From Mobula hypostoma (lineage: Eukaryota), in the NCBI RefSeq assembly GCF_963921235.1, contig NC_086108.1:25048001-25112000 (forward strand): a DNA stretch of 64,000 bases, read 5' to 3'. The notes under the pieces are model-generated. The model saw only the letters and a program-made list of their open reading frames with translations, did not search any database and was not told the DNA's origin. The translations under genes were made by a program, and so were the position numbers. The stretch's first letter is position 1. Each line of letters opens with the position of its first letter. This document shows, piece by piece, positions 4,065-64,000 of the stretch.

Positions 4065-4147
4065 CATTCACGGTTTCACTGTGCCTTTATTCATTCTAGT
4101 GCACCTGGTCCTTTCCCCATGAATGCAGCTTGACTGAAAGACGGGTA

Positions 4148-4823
4148 TAGTCGGCCCTCTGTATCCGCGTGTTCCGCATCCGCAGATTCAACCAACCGCG
4201 GATCGAAAATATTCAGAAAAAAATTCCAGAAAGTTCCAAAAAGCAAAACTTGAATTTGCCACACGCCGAGCACCACACTGAATCCACGCGAATGAAGTGA
4301 CGTGTAGGCATACCCTGCTGTAGCCTCCTGCCATTTCATAGATCCTCAGTCTCTCTCCAGCACTCATTGTTTGAGCATTGTTCGCCTTGTGTCTCGTTCA
4401 TTCGCTACTTGTGTTGTGAGCGAGAGGAAGGAGTTTAAGGCTAGTAAGGGATGGCTGGCTAGCGATGTAAAGTGTTACTGCCTCAAGAACTTAAAGATCA
4501 TGGGAGAATCAGCATTGGCTGATGCCAAGGCAGCATCAGTGTTCCCAGAAGGGCTACGATGGTTGCGACTGTACTGAACATACACAGACTTCTTTTTCTT
4601 GTCATTATTCCCTAAACAATACAGTATAACAACTATTTACATAGTATTTACATTGTATTAGGTATTATAAGTAATCTAGAGATGATTTAAAGTATAAGGA
4701 AGGATGTGCGTAGGTTATATGCAAATACTATGCCATTTTATATAAGGGACTTGAGCATCTGTGGATTTTGGTATCAGCGGGGGGTCCTGGCACCAATCCT
4801 CCACAGATATCGAGGGACAACTG
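4148..4823 (+). mobile_element. Non-autonomous Tigger/pogo element, MER2/MER2B-like
   Basis: TA on both sides (4146-47 and 4824-25). TIRs (T/C)AGTCGGCCCTCTGTATC...GATATCGAGGGACAACTG. Internal CENP-B-type HTH remnant EFKASKGWL...LKNLKIMGESALAD (ORF 4371-4577). Confidence 0.88.
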
Positions 4824-5159
4824 TACTGTCTTCCGGATGAGGACACTGAGGGTGGCCTGGCTTTTTTGGGGATGATCTAGAGCAACTTGAGCTAGTTGGC
4901 TGCCGTCATCAGCAAGCTTGAGTGATAAGAATGGATGTAGACATGTGTCAGAAAGCATGCTGCATTGGATTCAAGATTACTTGTGAACGGATGTCATGAT
5001 CTAAGAAGTATATGTAGTTGAGAATGTTATGATACTGAAGCATCTTCCTATACTGCACAGAACATCTTACTATAACACTTTACTTTGGGCATTGACATTT
5101 GATCTTCTGTGTTTCCACTGCCTTCTGAATATATATCTAAGTAACATTCTGCTGCATAT

Positions 5160-14308: not shown

Positions 14309-15643
14309 CACCCTATCCTCATTATATGCATCTTCAGACTATGCGGATTCACAGTTATGCAAGGAACCTATTTCTACCAACGTCTCATTATATGCGTCCA
14401 AAATTCACAGTTATGCGAGGAGCACTGCTTTCCCTCGAATACAAGTCACGTGTGCACGCTTCACAGTCTCACTTTTGAGATGAGGATCACCGCTTTCCCG
14501 CGAATACAAGTCAGGTGCGCGTGCCTCACAATTTCACTCTCGCCACTCTCGCATTGGTTTTGGCAGGGTGTGGATGCGTGATCTTAAACTTTTGTTGGTT
14601 TTACCTACAGTGCAGTGATTTTGTGCTTGAAATATTTAGCTATATCTCCTAAGCGTCCAATATCATGTCTTGGGCCGTCAGCCGAGCAGCAGAGAACCGC
14701 TTTAACACTTGAAAAAAAGTTGGAAATTATAAAACAGCGCGGCATCTGCTGAAGGTAACACATCTCTGGGACGCTACTGCCGGGAACAGAATGTTTCCTT
14801 TAGAGTTCTTTTGTTGCTTGACAATGCACCGGCCCATCCTAAACATTTGGACAGCATTCATCCTAACGTAACAGTGCGTTTCCTGCCGCCTAACACAACA
14901 GTGCTGATTCAACCACTCGACCAAGGTGTAATCCACATTCAAGGCGTACGTATTTTTTTTACAGTGAACTATCTCTCAGATGCTGCAAGCAACAGACGAT
15001 TTTGAAAATCCTTGGATTTTACCAATGGTGAGGGAATGGTGGAAGTCGAAAACTTGGCACAAATGACGATGGACATGGACCCAAGTTTAGAATGGAGTCA
15101 GCATTTCAGTCGTTCCCTGCTGTCAACCCTTCTTCCCTACAAGCAAATTTATGCTGAAAAACAAAATGCTGCCAAGCAAACAATCCTCACCATTTTATTC
15201 AAATCACTGTAATCTTCTGCTGCCGGCAGTTCTAAGAGTTCTGTGAGGCTTCCTTCACCCCTTGCTGTGCTTGATATTATCCTGATGACCACAACCTTAT
15301 TCGTGTAAAGCTGCCCAATACCACAACAACCACTCATCTCCCGGAGCGAACATACCTGCCACTGTTGGTGAGTACTGTACACCAGAGCATGTTAACTTTC
15401 TATGATTTATTACATTTAATATTACCTTAAATTGATTAAATGTAATACAAATGTTGTCTTGTAGTACTGCTTTTGTGTCGTATTGGTATGAAAATGTGAA
15501 TAAATTACAGATAAAACATATTTAGGAAGTCTTCTGGAATGCGTCCCTATTTTCTCCAATTAAATAATTATTCACATTATGCGATTTCACATTATGCATC
15601 AACTTTGAGGAACGTATCCCCCGCATATAATAAGGATAGGGTG
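14309..15643 (+). mobile_element. pogo/Tigger-type DNA transposon, internally deleted
   Basis: 21-bp TIRs CACCCTATCCTCATTATATGC / GCATATAATAAGGATAGGGTG, with TA on the left. Transposase remnants LTLEKKLEII and LLDNAPAHP...FLPPNTT.LIQPLDQGVI (DDE_1). Confidence 0.9.
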
Positions 15644-21307: not shown

Positions 21308-23074
21308 ATGGAGATTGAGGAATTTCTAAAGGCGCCGACCTTGGAGGCATTAGAGGATGCCAGGAAAGCGGAATTGGCAGCTGTGGCCAAACGGTTGAAT
21401 CTTGTTAAGGGTAAGTTGACAATGAGGAGAGAGGAGATACACAGAGCTATCGTAGAGCACTATGTATCTAAAGGTGTGTTTCCCCAAGGGGAGCTGGAGG
21501 TGATATCTATTGGGAAACCTGCTGGAGATGCAGCACAGGTGCAGCTTGAAAAACTGAGACTCAAGCACGAGTTCCAGGTACGGCAGCTAGAACACAAAGA
21601 GAAGCAGTTAGAACGGCAGGAGAAAGAGAAACAGTTAGAATGGTAAGAGAGAGAGAGGGACAAACAGTTGGAGTGAGAAGAGAAACAGAGGGAAAGGGAA
21701 TTCGAGCTGGAGAGGTTAAAGTTGATGGCAGAGCAGGGGCCCATGCCGAACCAAGCTGGAGGGTTCAGGGCGACCCAGGAGGTTAGGCTGGTTCCCCCAT
21801 TTGACGATACCGATGTGGATCGGTACTTTCTCCATTTCGAAAAAGTTGCTGCAAGTCAGGACTGGCCGAGGGATAAGTGGGCTGTTTTGCTTCAGAGTGT
21901 ACTTAAAGGGAAAGCCCAACAAGCTTACTCGGCTTTGTCTGCGGAAGATGCCCAGAGGTATGAGGTGGTGAAAGAGGCCATCCTTAGGATTTATGAGTTG
22001 GTCCCGGAGGCATACCGGCGGAGGTTCCGGAATGCCAGGAAGCAGTGGGACCGCACGTATTTAGAGTTTGCCTGTGAGATGCAGACATATTGTGAGCGTT
22101 GGTGCGCCTCGAAAGGGGTAGATGGGGATTATGACAGACTGCTACAGCTGATCCTGATTGAGCAGTTTAAAGGTTGTGTCCCTGAAGGTATGAGACTCTA
22201 CCTAGATGAGAAAGAGGCAGCCACGTTAGCCGCAACTGCTAAGTTAGCGGATGAGTACGCGTTGACGCATAAAATGAAGTTTGCCCCGAGTAAAGGCTAC
22301 CAGAAGGGTAGTCAGGACGATGGGGAGAGTCCGCCGGAAAAGTCAGAAAGTAAGCTGGGGACTAGTGAGAAGAATAAGGTAGACCGGGAGCAGTCTGGTA
22401 GGAAGTCTCCTGGGGTCGTGTGTTATAATTGTGGGAAAGCTGGACACTTTGCATCCAGGTGCTTTGCCCCAAAGAAGGAGACGGGAAAAGGAAAAACGGC
22501 GATTTCGACTGGCTGTATTGAGCTGGTAAACAAACCGCTAGGAGAGGAAAGGTCTGCCAAAGTTCAGGAAGGGCGCGAGAGGTTTATCTCAGCCGGATTG
22601 GTGTCGGCAAAGGAGGGGTTAAACCCAGTTCCAGTGCGGATCTGGAGAGACACGGGAGCATGTCAGTCATTGATATTGAAGAGTGTGTTAGAGTTTAGTT
22701 CAGAGACCCAGACTGGGGAGGTCAGGGTCAAAGGTATTGGGGAAGGGACAGAAGCAGGCCCTTTACACCAGATACACCTACAAAGCAACTTGGTCTCTGG
22801 ACTAGTCACGATCGGGGTGAGGCCCGAATTACCGATGAAAGGCGTGGAAGTCTTGCTCGGTAATGACCTCGCCGGGGGAATTGTATTCTTGGCAGTGAGA
22901 TTGACAGGTCAGCCTGCCAGCATTGAGGCCCTGCCCATGGACTCACAGGTTCATCCTGTTTGCACAGTGACTCGCTGTATGTCCAGAGACACTGCTGAGA
23001 CGTTTCTACCAGCCTTGTACGAGGAGGGAGTAGAAAGCGTAATGAAACAGGAGGAAGTGGGGAAATTAAGGTAG
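21308..23074 (+). pseudogene. gag: Gypsy gag-protease (capsid/SCAN-like domain, CCHC knuckle, aspartic protease)
   Basis: One frame broken by two stops (TAA 21644, TGA 21674). Motifs: VPPFDD..VD.YF.HFEKVA, ILRIYELVPEAYRRRFR, LILIEQF, CYNCGKAGHFASRC, WRDTGACQS. Confidence 0.9.
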
Positions 23075-24259
23075 ATTTATCATTAGAAAAGAAGGACTTC
23101 ATACAGGCACAGGAGCGAGACGAGGAAACAGCTCTCTCTGAAGCAGGATTAAAAAGAGAGCCAGTAGGCTATTGTGTGGAGGAGGGTGTGCTAAGGAAGA
23201 AAGGGAGACCAAGTACCGTACCCGCAGATAAGGAATGGGGGATGGTGCCAAAAATTTATAGGGATGAGATTCTTAACCTGGCCCACAAGATACCCCTCGG
23301 TGGACATTTTGGGGGGAGGGAAACAGTCGGCGGAATCATGAAAGAGTTTTACTGGCTGCACAGGAGGAAGGATGTTATTGACTATTGCAGACATGAGTTA
23401 ACACAGTTAGAGGCTATTAACATGTTAAAAGCCCACCACGGTCAGAGAACAGATCTAGCTGGTGATATCATGAAAATTAATGAGGCTAAGGTGCCACCTG
23501 ATAAGGGGAGGACCCATTTTGAAAAGATAGGTGTGGTGCCGACCAGATGGGAGATGTCTATTGTGTTGACCCGTTTTGCTGATAAAGTCTCCCCCTTAAT
23601 CCCCGAACAAAGCGACCCTTTAGGAGAGCTAATTAAATGGCTCGCACACGTGTGTTTGATTGTCCCGAGGCGATGCAAAGAACTGGGACGTTGGATGGTG
23701 TTTGTCACGTTAGGTCAGCCTAGTGAGCAACACTCCTATAGAATGAGTAATTTTGTGACGAAAGGGCTAAAGAACACAGAAGTGTATATTGGCGATGTAA
23801 TACGGCTGTCTGAAGCCAGCTTGATAGTGAACCTTGAAAAAAATGAGTTCGGCCATGCGAAGGTCACTTATCTGGGAATTGTGGTAACACAGGGGCAGCT
23901 GGCAGCAATGCAAGCTAAGGTGCGGGCTATTTCTGACATCCCAACCCCGACAGACAAGAGGGCCCTCAGAAGGCTCTTGGAGGTGGTGGGGTACTGTAGG
24001 AAGTTTTGCAATAACTTTGCGGGTACTACCCCTCCCCCTCCTACTAAGCCCTTGCGAAAGAAAACTAAGTCGGGATGGGACGACCCTTGTTATCGTGGTC
24101 CGGGACGAAACCCAATGAGAGGTTACACTGATCACAATTCATCAGTGTTTTTGGCCACTATGAAGTTTGCTAAGTTGGAGCCTGGTTTAGAGGATTATTA
24201 AAATAACACGTAAAAAAGGGACAGAAAATGTGATTGCTGACTGTCTGTCAAGGTGTTGA
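23071..24259 (+). pseudogene. pol: Deleted pol mosaic (integrase H2C2, RT and RNase H remnants)
   Basis: LAHKIPLGGHFG...FYW..RKDVIDYCR, then VYIGDVI (decayed YIDD), VNLEKNEFGHAKVTYLG, YTDHN and, in another frame, GTENVIADCLSR. Confidence 0.85.
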
Positions 24260-40249: not shown

Positions 40250-40508
40250 ATGGTCATTTCTTGTACTTTCAGACATATTGAACAATATATCAAAAGTTGG
40301 ACTGAAACAAGTGCATGAAAAAGTAAAAAAATCTGGCGTTAAAAAATGGCCGCCAATGAAAAGAATCGGACCCACATCTTTCTTATTTTGCTATATTTCA
40401 CTGTTTCTAACAATGGTAGTGCCATAATTGTGGTATAAAATGTGAATGGGAGTACCCGCAGGGTGTGTTTTATTGCCAGAACTATGAACTATTATTTCAT
40501 GATGTCAT

Positions 40509-42345
40509 GTGATGACACATGCATTGGAGGATGACAATCCTGAGGTTCATCAGAAATTCCAGTCTGGGTTCCATGTAATCAGACGCAGCAGCCAATACTG
40601 GGTTGGCCTTGGCTCTGATCTTGTGATAGAGCAGACACTAATGCGCTCACTAAAAAGCCAAGGGGCCCTAACGCGAGGAAGTGGGATGTCAGAGCACCAG
40701 ACAGCAGCTTGGACTATGTCTTCCACTGTGTCATTCTCTTACAACCTTGCCATGCAAGAACTGACTGCAAATAGTTACACAACAGGTGAACAACATAAGG
40801 AGTTGTCCACCTCTGGAGTGAGTAGAGATGAGACTGACCCTGAAAAAGTCACAGCAAAACTGGACTGTTTCACGTCATTTGCAGATGATAAATCATTGCG
40901 CAACATCATCACAGGGGTTTATGCAAATGAGGATGTCAATGTACATGACCTGTTCGCAATAGGAAATGACATAGTTGGGAAGATGGATGGACACTCTGTT
41001 TTCTCATATTCGCACAAAAGGAGTATGAAGGTCAAAACACTAGCATCCAGCAGGGCAGTCAAAATTGCTGAAGACCATACCATAGATCCAGCGTTATTAT
41101 TCCAGAGGTTCCTAGTTGTTTCACAGACAGGTGATCTCTGGCTAGACGAAGTGATGAACTATGAACTCTGTCCATATCCGATGTCTTTGTTTGAAGCAAA
41201 GAACATCTTGCACCAGCCGGATAAGCCACAACTGGCAAAAGCAATAAAGAACTATGTCACTTCCAGACAATGTTGTCACACAGAGAGTCCCAGTGACAGA
41301 TCACTATGTTCGAGATGTGGGGGGGGTGTCACTTCTGCTCCGCTTAAAATGGACAGAGGGGTGCACCTACAATTCAGTTGCAGATGACCACGTCTCATTC
41401 ATTGTCAAGCACTATGCCAGAGCTACTGTAGAGTTTGATGGTTATGGGGTTGGGCCAAGCATAAAGGACTGTACTCATCAGCATCGAAGTAGAAATTTGA
41501 ATGCAAACAAGGTGAACATTACAGGGGTGACAAAATTTGTTGGAAAAAGGAGGACTTCTTGTCGAATGAGGCAAACAAGCAGGTAATTATCCAGCTTATC
41601 ATGGAATGTTTGCGACAGAGAAGCTGCGAAGTGATTCAAGCTGAAGGAGTGCCGACATTGAGGTCACAATGTCTGCTTTCAAATCTACCACCCTCGTTGG
41701 AAAAGACACAGATCTTCTCGTACTCTTGCTGTACCATGCAGTGGTAACAAACTGCACTGAACTCTATTTCCGCTCGGACAAGGTGAAATCAAATGCCTAT
41801 AATATCAAGTCCTTAAGCAGATACTCAGAGAAGCAGCTTATAATGATCTATTGTTTCTCCATGCCTTAACCAGTTGCAACTCAATGTCCAGAGTATTTGG
41901 GATCAGAAAGAAGTCGGGGTTTCAAAGAATCATCAAGAAAGAAAAGGGAATCAGAGACTGTTTGAAAGCGTTCTGCTCACCAAAATAAAGTCAGGTTGTT
42001 GTGGAAACCAATGGCTGCAGGGCAATGGTGGTGTCATTCAATGGAAATCAGAACGACTCCCTGGCATCTATCAGATACAATATGCTCCGCAAGAAAGTTG
42101 CGAGATCTAAGACTCTCATCACGCCTGAAAGACTGCCACCAACCACCTCGGCCTGTAAATTTTACTCACTGTGGACTTACTACCAGGTAATGGAGTGGAT
42201 GGGCCGTAGTGATGAAATGGAGCCGGCTAAGTGGGGATGGAGGGTAGAAGGAGAAAAACTCATTCCAGTGATGACAGATAAAAGGCCTGCTCCAGAGGTA
42301 CGTATTCAGATGATTCACTGCAACTGTTCAGGAGGGTGCAATACG
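40509..42345 (+). pseudogene. Academ-type protein, frameshifted; N-terminus deleted; last codons at 49409-49537
   Basis: Chain of ORFs 40509-41387, 41254-41586, 41559-41747, 41669-41869 and 42001-42345. IHCNCSGGCNT joins to LKCT.RKHGLKCT.ECGQC across the Rex insertion. Confidence 0.8.
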
Positions 42346-42769
42346 CTGACTAACAGACCCCAATCAGTTAAGTTAGACAACCTCTCCTCCTCCACTCTCA
42401 CCCTGAACACCGGCGTGCCTCAAGGCTGTGTGCTGAGCCCTCTTCTGTACTCCCTTTTCACCTATGACTGCGTTCCTGTACATGGTTCTAGCTCCATAAT
42501 CAAGTTTGCAGACGACACCATGGTGGTTGGCCTGATCAGAGGGGATGATGAGACAGCCTACAGGGATGAGGTCCAGCACCTGGCCACGTGGTGTGCCAAC
42601 AACAATCTGGCCCTTAATACCCAGAAGACCAAGGAGATTATTGTGGACTTCGGGCATGCTAGGAGCAACACTCATGTCCCATCTACATCAATGAAGCTGT
42701 AGTGGAGCATGTATCAAGCTTCAAATTCCTTGGTGTCCACATTTCTTAGGATCTCACCTGGTCCCTGAA

Positions 42770-50122: not shown

Positions 50123-52625
50123 AAGATAATCATATTATTTTATATTCTTATGTTTCCACATTGCATGTCTGAATGGTTCCAAAGCTTAATTGGCATTTAA
50201 GCACAGAATAACTTACATCTGCACCCTGACCTAATGGGTCTTAAAACTTCTCACTGTACATCCAGAGAGAATGTTTCATTATCATCGCCTGTTGCTTCCT
50301 TTCTTGGCCTACTCCATTTATTGTGGTTCTGCCTGCAACATGCCTAGATTGTATATTATGCAGAACAGTGTAGAGAACCCAGAGGCCTTCAGAAGCACGA
50401 CAAAGGCCTCCTGAGCAATGCAGCTTCAGAATCACACTCTCCACAATACTTATAGTAACCCTGTAGCATAGGCTGTATTTATGATCTTCAGTGAAATTAG
50501 TATTCTGAATGATGCCAAGAAGCAAAGGTGAAATGGATAGCCTTCATCAACTGGATGTCTCTGTGACCAGTGCATTGAGCAAAATAAAGTGACATGTTAA
50601 ACTGCCTCAGAATGAGCCATGTAAAATCCCAGATGCAAGACATTGACTGGTGGTGGTTACAGATTTAAAGGAATCATGCCTCAGCTACCTGTTGTTTTAA
50701 GCAAAAGCTTGACAAGGCTTCATCTCTGAAATGGAACAAAATGACCAAAGTTATGGTAGCTTTACACTCTATATCTGGGCTGCAGAGCTGTACTCCAATG
50801 GCCTCTTCAGCAAACCTACTAGTGATTGATGATCATACCAAGTGGAGGAATTGTAAGACTGGTCACTGCTATTCAGACTTGATATGTTAAACGTGGTCCA
50901 CAGTAAGTGGAAATTTCATATGTTTGAATACATTACGCAGAGGAACCACCAGCTATGCACAATGGTTGATATTCCTGTATGTTCTTTGTGCACAGTTTAC
51001 ACATGAGACAGTGTGTTTCAAAGGTATCATAATGCAGAAAACTAAGGTATTGATGTTACACTACAATGCAATCCTACAGCATTTACATGGTGTCTGTTTT
51101 CCAAAGGAATTTTCAGGCCTAATTTTCTGTCCACTTGCTTATGGAATTTGCAAGGTGGAAAATGCTGGCTCCTGCCCGAATTATAATGCAGTACATTTTC
51201 CTCCAGTGTCTGTTTCTTTTATTTTTCTGCTTGGTTGAATTCATGCTGCAATCTAATGAATATTTCCTTGTGATGTAACTTTCTTTAACTAGCCTGGCAT
51301 ATCAGGAAATGTAATTTCTGTGTTTTTATTATATACAAGAATATGTGCCACTAAATAAATTACAAGGAAACAGTTCAAACTAATGGCTAAATTGATAGAT
51401 ATTTAAGGTTTCACTTTCTGGTTTTACACTGTCCATAACACATTCATTTAATAAGGTTTAAAATGACTATTATAATCAAAAAATCTAGACTGCAAAGCCA
51501 TTTCTCCATTTATATTGAGGTCTCTAACCCACTTACATAACGCACATTGAAAAATATCAATTGCACTGGTGTATGTGTTTTTAAATGCTCAGGCATTGAT
51601 CTCATGTGAAATACTGATCAGCAGTAGCAGCTGGGAACTAATCGTGCTCATTGTATGATGCACTGTACAGTGGTACTGGAATGTTTGGGAATCCTTCAGG
51701 ATTTTCTCTATTCCTGCACAAGTATGACCTAATGTAATCAGATCTTCACAAAAGTCCTAAAACCAGATGAAAAGAAAAACATTATACTTGTTCATTTATT
51801 TATTGAGAAAAATGATCCAATGTATTTCCATGTACATCCATGTATTTGATGGAAAAATATGTGAACCTCTGGGGTAATGCCTTCTACAAAAGCTATTTGG
51901 AGTCAGGTGTTCCAATCAATGAGATGAGGTTGGAGGTGAGTGTTATAGAGGTACCCTGGCCTATAAAAAAGACGCACAAATTCAGGCGACTGACAGAGCC
52001 TGCACTTCTCAAGAAAGGTCTGTTTATGTGCACCATGTCTCAATCAAAACAACTTTCAGAGGACCTTAGAAGATGAATCGTAGAGATGCATGAAGCTGAA
52101 AAAGGCTACAACAGCATTTCTAAAGACCTGAGTGTTCATAAGTCCACCATAAGAGAAATTGTCTACAATTGTCTACAATTGTCTCAGTACTTTTGCTACT
52201 CTCCCTAGGAGTGGACATCTTGCAAAAATCACACTAAGAGCACAACATGCAATGCTGAAGCAGGTGAAAATGAACTCAAGAGTAACAGCAAAAGACATGC
52301 AGACATCTCTAGAACTTTCAAAAGTCTCTGTTATGTGTCCACTGTAAGATAAAAACTGAACAAGAATGGTGTTCATGGAAGGACACCATGGAGGAAACCA
52401 CTACTCTCCAAAACAAAAGATTGCTGCACGCGTCAAGTTTACAAAAGACCACCTGGATGTTCCACAATGCTTCTGGGACAATATTCTGTGGACAGATAAG
52501 AAAATGACTGAACATTTTTGGCAGAAATTCACATTGCTATATTTGCAGGAAAAAGGGCACTGCACACCAACACCAAAACCTCATCCCAACCGTGAAGCAT
52601 GGTGGAAGGAGCATCATGGTTTGGG

Positions 52626-52862
52626 CAACACACATCAAAGTTTCTGGTGAACGCAGCAGGCCAGGCAGCATCTCTAGGAAGAGGTACAGTCGACGTTTCA
52701 GGCCGAGACCCTTTGTCAGGACACAGAGAGTCCTGACGAGGGGGTCTCGGCCTGAAACGTCGACTGTACCTCTTCCTAGAGATGCTGCCTGGCCTGCTGC
52801 GTTCACCAGCAACTTTGATGTGTGTTGCTTGAATTTCCAGCATCTGCAGAATTCTTGTTGTT
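52626..52862. mobile_element. Palindromic Penelope-type terminal repeat insertion
   Basis: About 98-bp inverted arms (52625-52722 and 52730-52828). 10-bp TSD ATGGTTTGGG (52616-25 and 52863-72). Confidence 0.88.
52729..52765 (+). ncRNA. Minimal type I hammerhead ribozyme motif
   Basis: AGTC-CTGACGA-GGG(GGTCTCGG)CCT-GAAA-CGTC^GACT: core boxes CUGANGA and GAAA, stem I AGTC/GACT, palindromic stem III ACGT, predicted cleavage after 52761. Confidence 0.75.
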
Positions 52863-54261: not shown

Positions 54262-54355
54262 CTGATGAAGGGTTTCGGCCCAAAACATCAACTGTACTTT
54301 TTTCCATAGATGCTGCCTGGCCTGCTGAGTTCCTTTAGCATTTTGTGTGTGTTAC
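54262..54355 (+). repeat. Penelope-type terminal repeat with a decayed hammerhead
   Basis: CTGATGAAGGGTTTCGGCCCAAAACATCAACTG...GATGCTGCCTGGCCTGCTGAGTTCC, inside a minus-strand CR1 remnant. CTTGCATTTCT occurs on both sides as a probable TSD. Confidence 0.75.
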
Positions 54356-54959
54356 TCTTGCATTTCTTATATTTCTCGAGCTCCTCATTTGTTCCTTGCT
54401 GCCTATACCTGCTATTCACCTTCTTCTTCTTCTAACCATGGCTTAACCCTCAAAAATTAAGGTTCAACCTTGGGAAACCCTAAACCAGTATTTTATTTTT
54501 AAATTTTTAAAAATTTTTTAAAAAAGAATGCATTATTTATTTATTTTTAAATCCGGTATCACACACTCTCGAGTTGGTATCTCTATATATTAAGGAAACT
54601 TTCCTGAACACAGTTGATAGACTCTCCCATCTAGTCCTTTTGCAGTTAGGAGATAAGTGATAACAAGTCTGGCTGAGCCTTGAGAGTCATGGCTGCCTGA
54701 CTGGGAATGCAGCAGGTAACATCAACCAAACCAAGGGATAAATATAGTTGTTAGCATCCTCACCAAACTATCTGTGAGACTCATGAAGTTATACTACATT
54801 GTAGCAGCCCAATAGTCCAACTTGTCCATGCTGACTGAGATGCCTGTCCACACTAATCCCTTTTGCTCAGGTTTGGCTAATATCTCACTAAACTTTTTCT
54901 ATTCAAGTACCTGTCCAGATATCTTTTAAATGTGGTTGTACCTCTCTGCCATAATGTGT

Positions 54960-60679: not shown

Positions 60680-62907
60680 ACATAGAAACATAGAAAATAG
60701 GTGCAGGAGTAGGCCATTCGGCCCTTCGAGCCTGCACCGCCATTTATTATGATCATGGCTGATCATCCAACTCAGAACCCTGCCCCAGCCTTCCCTCCAT
60801 ACCCCCTGATCCCCGTAGCCACAAGGGCCATATCTAACTCCCTCTTAAATATAGCCAATGAACTGGCCTCAACTGTTTCCAGTGGCAGAGAATTCCACAG
60901 ATTCACCACTCTCTGTGTGAAGAAGTTTTTCCTAATCTCGGTCCTAAAAGGCTTCCCCTTTATCCTCAAACTGTGACCCTTCGTTCTGGACTTCCCCAAC
61001 ATCGGGAACAATCTTCCTGCATCTAGCCTGTCCAATCCCTTTAGGATTTTATACGTTTCAATCAGATCCCCCCTCAATCTTCTAAATTCCAATGAGTACA
61101 AGCCCAGTTCATCCAGTCTTTCTTCATATGAAAGTCCTGCCATCCCAGGAATCAATCTGGTGAACCTTCTTTGTACTCCCTCTATGGCAAGGATGTCTTT
61201 CCTCAGATTAGGGGACCAAAACTGCACACAATACTCCAGGTGCGGTCTCACCAAGGCCTTGTACAACTGCAGTAGTACCTCCCTGCTCCTGTACTCAAAT
61301 CCTCTCGCTATAAATGCCAGCATACCATTCGCCTTTTTCACCGACGGCTGTAACTGCATGCCCACTTTCAATGACTGGTGTATAATGACACCCAGGTCTC
61401 GTTGCACCTCCCCTTTTCCTAATCAGCCACCATTCAGATAATAATCTGTTTTCCTATTTTTGCCACCAAAGTGGATAACTTCACATTTATCCACATTAAA
61501 TTGCATCTGCCATGATTTTGCCCACTCATCCAACCTATCCAAGTCACTCTGCATCCTCTTAGCATCCTCCTCAGAGCTAACACTGCCACCCAGCTTCGTG
61601 TCATCTGCAAATTGGAGATGCTGCATTTAATTCCCTCATCCAAGTCATTAATATATATTGTAAACAACTGGGGTCCCAGCACTGAGCCTTGCGGTACCCC
61701 ACTAGTCACCGCCTGCCATTCTGAAAAGGTCCCGTTTATTCCCACTCTTTGCTTCCTGTCTGCTAACCAATTCTCTATCCGCATCAATACCTTACCCCCA
61801 ATACCGTGTGCTTTAAGTTTGCACATTAATCTCCTGTGTGGGACCTTGTCAAAAGCCTTTTGAAAATCCAAATATACCACATCCACTGGCTCTCCCCTAT
61901 CCACTCTACTAGTTACATCCTCAAAAAATTCTATGAGATTCGTCAGACATGATTTTCCTTTCACAAATCCATGCTGACTTTGTCCGATGATTTCACCACT
62001 TTCCAAATGTGCTGTTATCACATTTTTGATAACTGACTCCAGCAGTTTCCCCACCACCGACGTTAGGCTAACCGGTCTATAATTCCCCGGTTTCTCTCTC
62101 CCTCCTTTTTTAAAAAATGGGGTTACATTAGCCACCCTCCAATCCTCAGGAACTAGTCCAGAATCTAACGAGTTTTGAAAAATTATCACTAATGCATCCA
62201 CTATTTCTTGGGCTACTTCCTTAAGCACTCTGGGATGCAGACCATCTGGCCCTGGGGATTTATCTGCCTTCAATCCCTTCAATTTACCTAACACCACTTC
62301 CCTACTAACATGTATTTCGCTCAGTTCCTCCAACTCACTGGACCCTCTGTCCCCTACTATTTCTGGAAGATTATTTATGTCCTCCTTAGTGAAGACAGAA
62401 CCAAAGTAATTATTCAATTGGTCTGCCATGTCCTTGCTCCCCATAATCAATTCACCTCTTTCTGTCTGTAGGGGACCTACATTCGTCTTTACCAGTCTTT
62501 TCCTTTTTTTAACATATCTATAAAAGCTTTTACAGTCAGTTTTTATGTTCCCTGCCAGTTTTCTCTCATAATCTTCTTTCCCCTTCCTAATTAAGCCCTT
62601 TGTCCTCCTCTGCTGAACTCTGAATTTCTCCCAGTCCTCAGGTGAGCCACTTTCTCTGGCTAATTTGTATGCTTCTTCTTTGGAATTGATACTATCTCTA
62701 ATTTCCCTTGTCAGCCACGGGTGCACTACCTTCCTTGATTTATTCTTTTGCCAAACTGGGATGAACAATTGTTGTAGTTCATCCATGCAATCTTTAAATG
62801 CTTGCCATTGCATATCCACCGTCAATCCTTTAAGTGTCATTTGCCAGTCTATCTTAGCTAATTCACGTCTCATACCTTCAAAGTTACCCCTCTTTAAGTT
62901 CAGAACC
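60680..62907 (-). mobile_element. Young CR1-type LINE, 5'-truncated
   Basis: Long ORF2 segment in ORFs 61434-62999, 61423-61626 and 60772-61407, with only about two frameshifts. (ACATAGAA)n tail. Confidence 0.96.
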
Positions 62908-64000
62908 TGACAATACCTGTTACAAATGAGGTCCAAAGCTCTAGTAATGGGAATCCAAATACCAAAATATCCAGAATTTATCTGATTTGATGACTCCACT
63001 CTGAAATCTATTAAAATCTCAAAGAAAAAACTGACATCATTTGCTTTTCCATTTGAGTGACAGTTAATTATTTCTTTATTGAATTAGAAGTTAGCTTTAC
63101 AAGCTTCATGGCAATATCTACCTATCTCGCAGAGTAATGATAAAACACAAAAAGCACTGAGTCAAAAAGGCAGTAACTGACCAATTCCTGCTTTGGCCCC
63201 TTTCCTGTTTAGTGAGATTTCTCCTAATTTGTAATCCAACTCCACATTACAACGTTTTTCATAGAGCTTTCCTTCTTAAATATCTGTCAGCTTCAGGTTC
63301 AAGATTAACCCCTAACTGATATCAACTGAGGCACCTAAAGACATGGAGAAAATGAGGGGGAATCTGGAAAAAAAGTTCAGTGTAAATGTACAGCACCATC
63401 CACTGAACATGTGAATGAGGTAACAATTTTCACTCAGAGGCTTGTAGGTCTTTGAAGCTCTTCCCCAAAGGATGATGGACGAAGTACCTTTGAATATTCT
63501 TAAATCAAAATTAGATAGATTCTCATTAAGCATGGAGAGGTGATAGGTAACCTGTGATTAAAAAAAAAGGATGCAGAGTTGTGTCTACAGTCAGATCAGT
63601 CAAGATCTTATTGATTGAAAGAGTAGGCTTAAAGGGAAGAGTGAGCAACCTGCTTTTCACTCATATGCACCTGCTATTTGTGTTAAAGAATTTGAAACAC
63701 CCTTAACCCTGTACGTACAAGCATCTCTTAATTTCACTTCTAACTCTGAAATTATGATTCTTACCCTAAGACATCCAAATAGTAGAAATATTGGAAATTA
63801 AATTAGTAAACAAGCATTAGGCTGGAAACCTAAAATAAAAACATGAAAGACTAGAATGAAGTTCTGACAAAGCGTCTTCTACCTGCAACAGGAACACCGT
63901 CATTCCCTTTGATGTTCTCTGACTGCTAAGTATTTCTAGTATTATGGATAAATATATACAAAAGATTCTGCAGGTGCTGGAAATGAAGCCCAACATATAC

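Follow-up and report, generated by a model that had tools for sequence, protein, structure and literature searches.

DD32D Tigger transposases bind the terminal repeats of their element, excise it and insert it at a TA dinucleotide. One study is said to have found transfers of mariner elements between mammals and insects. The mammalian MER2 family, to our knowledge, is without coding sequence. The Tigger family of the pogo superfamily spans the range DD29-36D in the part of PMC7386202 available to us, and its terminal inverted repeats measure 8–33 bp (PMC9219625). When internal deletions leave both ends in place, the resulting derivatives depend on the parent (PMC1914374, section 9). According to the accessible portion of PMC7070016, DNA transposons are neutral within genomes and selected only upon transfer, and of the vertebrate transfers inferred there, which number at least 975, only 24 involved mammals or birds. 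For Tiggers, transfers between Eutheria and Chondrichthyes have already been claimed (PMC9219625, section 3.3).

MER2 and MER2B are listed as human non-autonomous Mariner/Tc1 families of Repbase in the available part of PMC5753468 (Table 5). In the accessible portion of PMC1914374 and its supplement, MER2 has a 345-bp model, 8,377 human fragments and a median divergence of 18.5%, while MER2B has 2,224 human fragments, a median divergence of 19.2% and a model of about 336–345 bp. The median divergence of MER2 ranges from 18.5% to 28% across primates, rodents and cow, the rows present cover human, chimpanzee, rhesus, cow, rat and mouse, with the dog row absent, and the authors place MER2 near the divergence of these mammal species. 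MER2 is not mentioned in the accessible main text of PMC9219625, nor are Tigger and MER2 in the available parts of PMC10162687 and PMC13320814. Our literature search, which left aside most subscription journals and the Repbase and Dfam entries, returned no paper in which MER2 is connected with sharks or rays.

The window, that is, the whole 64-kb stretch of DNA analysed here, contains a single copy of a Tigger-derived element of 676 bp (4148–4823), located between TA 4146–4147 and TA 4824–4825. Its features are as follows.

4146–4147, no strand: left TA target-site duplication, with TA found at both edges
4148–4170, plus strand: left terminal inverted repeat, 23 bp, imperfect (15/23 versus the right end)
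4148–4418, plus strand: left non-coding arm, 271 bp, with the terminus, a CpG-rich subterminal region and a probable 5' leader
4419–4559, plus strand: transposase remnant of 47 codons, corresponding to codons 131–177 of a DD32D Tigger transposase
4560–4823, plus strand: right non-coding arm of 264 bp, probably the 3' end of the parent
4801–4823, minus strand: right terminal inverted repeat, whose inward start is the four-base motif of most Tigger termini in PMC9219625 Table S1
4824–4825, no strand: right TA target-site duplication, with TA found at both edges

Two marks of a Tigger are present at the edges, the TA target-site duplication and the 23-bp terminal repeats, the latter weak on their own with 15/23 agreeing positions (ends scored by script). 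Five of the eight mismatches between the repeats are transitions, three of them at CpG on one arm. TA-flanked intervals with a terminal match of at least 15/23 occur at a rate of one per 2,170,623 sampled intervals of the window, and simple arithmetic extends this rate to some tens over all window intervals of 300–1500 bp. The terminal repeats are therefore not decisive by themselves. What makes the element convincing is that the ends and an internal piece of transposase, recognized in a database search with an E value of 8.4e-11, occur together. The repeat finder missed the true terminal pair; it picked up the right terminal repeat only in part, in a chance pairing with the flank. The local search with the flanks joined showed no older repeat interrupted by the 676-bp insertion. 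The observed to expected CpG ratio is 0.71 in the element versus 0.31 in the window, and the excess comes mainly from the first 163 bp (4148–4310), where the ratio reaches 1.43; since 10/188 tiles reach the same level, this excess is a minor point. The GC content of the right arm is 0.36 (4563–4823).

A comparison of six frames with 143 stored proteins identified the remnant as the sole coding piece of the element, on the plus strand; in this comparison the left arm gave no further transposase match and the right arm no significant one. The element is thus intact at its ends, carries two internal deletions, and is dead and non-autonomous. The first-pass annotation had described a complete TA-flanked element of 676 bp, and the length and both TAs agree with that description; the completeness applies to the ends only, the interior having been deleted twice. 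The helix-turn-helix remnant that it noticed is indeed a piece of transposase, although it comprises only the last 24 residues of HTH_Tnp_Tc5 (91–154 in the parent) followed by the linker. Its assignment of the element to Tigger (pogo) derivatives was borne out by the TA duplication, the terminal repeats of about 23 bp and a transposase remnant with Tigger relatives. The motifs that it quoted lie, as judged by eye, where it placed them, save for one letter and one spacer length.

Among the described Tiggers, none of the terminal motifs in PMC9219625 Table S1 (384 rows with the head row) equals either end of the element, as compared by eye. The table contains no stingray, and its five chondrichthyan Tiggers have other termini; the nearest terminus noticed, also by eye, belongs to Strongyloides papillosus, with about 17/23 matching positions. 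Three short peptide words gave no match in the supplement of that paper, the sequence files of which may be in DNA or gapped form. The transfers reported there share both the transposon family and the pair of host groups with the element described here, but the white shark, catshark and dwarf mongoose elements involved have termini unlike those of the window element. In the accessible mongoose–fish and mongoose–arthropod rows of PMC9219625 Table S2, the transposon distances are 0.62–0.75, which for these rows is a weak basis for recent transfer.

The element and the MER2/MER2B families share the TA-flanked, non-autonomous, Tigger-type organization. The first ~160 bp of the left arm may be MER2B-like and the 264-bp right arm (~260 bp) MER2-like, a presumed likeness of the arms that the first-pass annotation also proposed. 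The element differs from the 345-bp MER2 in being about twice as long, with a 271-bp left arm, 47 transposase codons and a cartilaginous fish as host. Set against a MER2 of ~340 bp without coding sequence, a sequence of 676 bp with 47 codons is at most a longer relative. The link of the element to the mammalian family is probable rather than proven; if the presumed match of the arms holds, vertical descent is very unlikely.

The search with the remnant returned six proteins among 129 candidates, and the best named matches were stingray proteins, while Pfam assigned no family to the remnant alone in two queries. A second search, with one of the remnant relatives, gave 223 matches of 8,000 scored, and among the best 120 of these 223 was P0029, a protein of 607 aa from a 2,416-bp JGI contig. 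P0144 (611 aa, from a 2,120-bp contig of Logan) belongs to the same cluster and is 96% identical to P0029. Both proteins possess the CENP-B_N, HTH_Tnp_Tc5 and DDE_1 domains and an intact D-D32-D triad. They thus show the domain set shared by the Tigger family, and their DD32D spacing lies inside the DD29-36D range; the element itself retains only codons 131–177. The first-pass annotation had expected that the coding remnant might help to identify the autonomous parent, and it did lead to these two intact DD32D transposases, which on the protein sequences are a good candidate parent of the element. We infer that the non-coding arms derive from the same P0144/P0029 parent. The DNA of such a parent was sought with the protein query in 433 metagenome stretches, where the 77 relatives found were all distant (best segments at most 72% identical) and none of the 77 loci showed DNA likeness beyond two 20-bp matches. 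None of 22 viral and 160 prokaryote-genome candidates proved to be a relative. The Tigger genes of elephant, manatee, horse or opossum were ruled out as parent, being 60–65% identical and members of another clade.

The decay of the remnant may be read from its residues. It is identical to P0144 at 36/47 positions and likewise to the stingray fusion protein P0001 at 36/47, whereas identity to the majority of four close relatives rises to 38/47. The nine residues that differ from this majority require 10 base changes in 111 non-synonymous sites; five of the nine differences are compatible with CpG decay. The decay looks neutral, as in a transposon fossil.

The stingray matches deserve attention in their own right. 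The GTF2I/GTF2IRD2-like proteins of Hypanus sabinus, Hemitrygon akajei and Mobula mostly start with a Tigger DNA-binding module of about 190 aa, followed by a GTF2I repeat (P0001, P0005, P0007–P0020 and P0022–P0026). Reportedly, transposons have been misannotated as GTF2IRD2 in one study, which calls for caution with such gene names; the true GTF2I repeat is present in the ray proteins in any case. The ray modules are 86–89% identical to P0144. The Hypanus and Hemitrygon modules are more than 99% identical to each other, and the Hemitrygon and Mobula modules 87% (164/189), so that P0144 is as close to each ray module as the Hemitrygon and Mobula modules are to each other. These proteins look like the product of a host–transposase fusion gene. 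Because the fusion is common to whiptail and devil rays, it sets a minimum age for the lineage in rays, and the module would have been captured not long before the two groups split. The pelagic stingray line dates back to the early Late Cretaceous in the available part of PMC7614867. Host genes with a captured transposase DNA-binding module, like the stingray GTF2I-like ones, were the subject of the fusion survey bioRxiv 10.1101/2020.05.07.082677, which in its accessible part covers tetrapods. No paper on a stingray Tigger–GTF2I fusion came up in our literature search, and the supplements of that survey may list related fusions. Unlike these fusions, the window element lies in no gene reading frame as far as could be seen.

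The wider relationships of the candidate parent were surveyed among 283 of the 291 proteins collected in the Tigger searches, namely those whose alignment covered 100 residues or more. Identity to P0144 of at least 85% was limited to P0144, P0029 and 15 stingray proteins. The gene of the skink Tiliqua is 74–75% identical, the trio that it forms with two look-alikes 72–75%, and the Tiggers of the whipworm Trichuris suis 69%, with several other sequences between the skink trio and the whipworm. In a search for shorter relatives (912 matches of 6,667), none among the best 120 of 912 exceeded 78%. The members of the trio (P0027 of Tiliqua scincoides, P0006 and P0028) are full-length proteins belonging to this Tigger lineage; in all three, glycine stands in place of the first and second catalytic aspartates, and two of them have a repetitive N-terminal extension. 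The skink gene of the P0027 type is probably a domesticated, catalytically dead lizard gene. The nearest mammalian Tigger proteins compared are 60–65% identical to P0144 and form a separate clade, headed by the elephant protein at 65%. In elephant (P0033), manatee (P0153) and opossum (P0032), genes of this related clade, 61–65% identical to P0144, were observed, and the elephant KRAB-type fusion has all three catalytic aspartates. With a non-coding MER2, one would expect what was seen, namely that no mammalian protein among those compared is more than 65% identical to the parent, yet this lends no support to a mammalian link.

Phylogenetic trees were built from chosen subsets of the stored proteins. 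In the tree of N-terminal modules (41 rows), the remnant, the ray fusions, P0144/P0029, the skink-type genes and the whipworm group come together with support of 91/89, and other lizard, turtle and mammal Tiggers fall outside this group; the exact place of the remnant, with 25% of columns filled, is unstarred. The full-length tree (33 rows) agrees, with a core of seven rows at 86 SH-aLRT and the whipworm elements as the nearest outside group. A single clade of the seven rows taken as tetrapod (six named and one assigned by its likeness to the skink gene) was rejected with a p-AU of 0.0075 (15 rows), the group having been picked after the trees were viewed; a similar tree pattern can also arise from Tigger families that are old paralogues. 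At the protein level, and among the matches listed, the host range of the parent lineage is patchy, including rays, skink and whipworms; such a distribution is compatible with horizontal spread.

Taken as a whole, the reading that we consider reasonably probable is that the element is a dead DD32D Tigger derivative, that its lineage entered stingrays horizontally, and that the same or a near-identical family was probably the source of MER2/MER2B through separate invasions. The transposase of the parent would have excised an element and pasted it at a TA, which became duplicated. Two internal deletions, probably by abortive gap repair, would have taken codons 1–130 and codons 178 onward, with both termini spared. 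A derivative that kept both termini could have moved in trans and then decayed neutrally. The P0144/P0029 lineage would have entered stingrays before the whiptail/devil ray split, presumably in the Cretaceous, and the ages of MER2 and of the stingray line fit together in time. The same or a near-identical family may then have been the source of eutherian MER2/MER2B, as the presumed likeness of the arms suggests, most likely in an invasion separate from that of the rays and starting from a shared invertebrate reservoir, not in a direct ray–mammal jump. Should the MER2 match hold, several Cretaceous invasions from this reservoir would be the simplest picture. P0144/P0029 could themselves derive from rays, in which case they would give no indication of transfer.

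A doubtful but serious alternative keeps the derivative and its mobile lineage as described and has MER2/MER2B come from a sister family, for instance a relative of Tigger2, the match being looser than presumed or mostly terminal and the mammalian link indirect. The separate clade of the mammalian Tigger proteins fits this proposal, as do the related terminal motifs of other Tiggers, such as that of Strongyloides papillosus. It agrees less well with a likeness that would run deep into both arms, over about 160 and 260 bp.

Vertical descent of a Tigger lineage from the jawed-vertebrate ancestor, kept separately in rays, lizards and mammals, appears improbable. Tiggers are widespread in vertebrates (PMC9219625 and the available part of PMC7386202), domesticated genes can be conserved, and the gaps in the host range may result from sampling, as they are seen among the best 120 of 223 and the best 120 of 912 matches. 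However, the copy and the parent differ at only about 9% of non-synonymous sites despite neutral decay, and DNA transposons are without purifying selection within genomes in the account given by the accessible portion of PMC7070016. Moreover, the ray and skink genes differ in architecture, unlike one old orthologue, and the nearest outside group consists of whipworm elements. Inheritance from such an ancestor does not easily account for the closeness of the rays, the lizard and the intact elements.

Even less credit can be given to a transfer that passed directly from a stingray ancestor to an early placental mammal, or the reverse, with no third host. The time windows proposed for the two groups overlap; against this, the lineage reaches the skink and the whipworms too, and mammals or birds figure in so few of the vertebrate transfers inferred in the part of PMC7070016 at hand. 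The data do not imply a direct jump, and they are equally compatible with separate invasions that started from a third host.

The sequences around the element point to the host. A LINE reverse transcriptase is encoded on the minus strand at 61437–63083 (searched against all representatives); of its eight matches that were looked up, five had an organism, including Callorhinchus milii with 69% and 63%, a frog with 52% and a brine shrimp with 32%. The left flank of the element matches the end of this LINE and another repeat copy at 68–69%, and the right flank matches a repeat at 54303–54357. The fish-like host proposed in the first-pass annotation can thus be specified as a cartilaginous fish, probably a relative of stingrays, from the matches of the reverse transcriptase, the flanking repeats and the best matches of the remnant in stingrays. 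Contamination or misassembly bringing mammalian DNA into a ray assembly, which that annotation had named as a danger and which the single copy in the window might suggest, is scarcely credible in view of the clean TA duplication, a coding piece closest to stingray proteins among named matches, a length about twice the 345-bp MER2 model (accessible supplement of PMC1914374) and native flanks, both of which recur elsewhere in the window, one in the repeat that ends the LINE with the Callorhinchus milii-like reverse transcriptase. A protein labelled Aeromonas cavernicola (P0427, from a 621-bp contig) is 90% identical to the LINE reverse transcriptase, and probably represents cartilaginous-fish DNA contaminating a bacterial assembly.

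The window contains further mobile sequences. At 14772–15200 lies a second, different Tigger remnant, from the DDE region, 56% identical to P0029 and 69% to P0245, for which no clear terminal repeats were found. The segment 20319–25272 has two 897-bp direct repeats, 96.8% identical, around long ORFs (21677–24201) that appear gag/pol-like by eye; it lies wholly within a LINE and is probably a fairly young LTR retrotransposon. A stretch of 204 bp (52625–52828) shows 93.7% identity to its own reverse complement and has partial copies at 54262–54366. At 40503–42702, two long frames free of stops and containing a cysteine cluster were seen by eye; they look like the remains of another DNA transposon, and a LINE piece follows them.

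A more far-reaching proposal, which we put forward tentatively and hold to be possible, joins these lines. P0144/P0029 would be an intact MER2/MER2B parent in a living non-mammal, and Cretaceous invasions of placentals, stingrays and lizards would have started from an invertebrate, possibly parasitic, reservoir. They would have left about ten thousand non-coding relics in the human genome and at least two host captures, the N-terminal DNA-binding module of the stingray GTF2I-like proteins and the dead skink gene. If the MER2 match fails, the element is an ordinary dead transposon. Transposon transfers involving mammals are rarely detected (accessible portion of PMC7070016), and a non-coding family like MER2 was probably missed by the screen in that study because, in the part available, it filters on coding regions. 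The advance offered here is a concrete candidate for the parent transposase, together with a dated capture by a host gene in stingrays. With arms presumed to be MER2-like joined to a piece of transposase, the ray copy can serve as a bridge between the common human repeat and a full-length enzyme, and through such a bridge the origin of the MER2 invasion would become directly testable.
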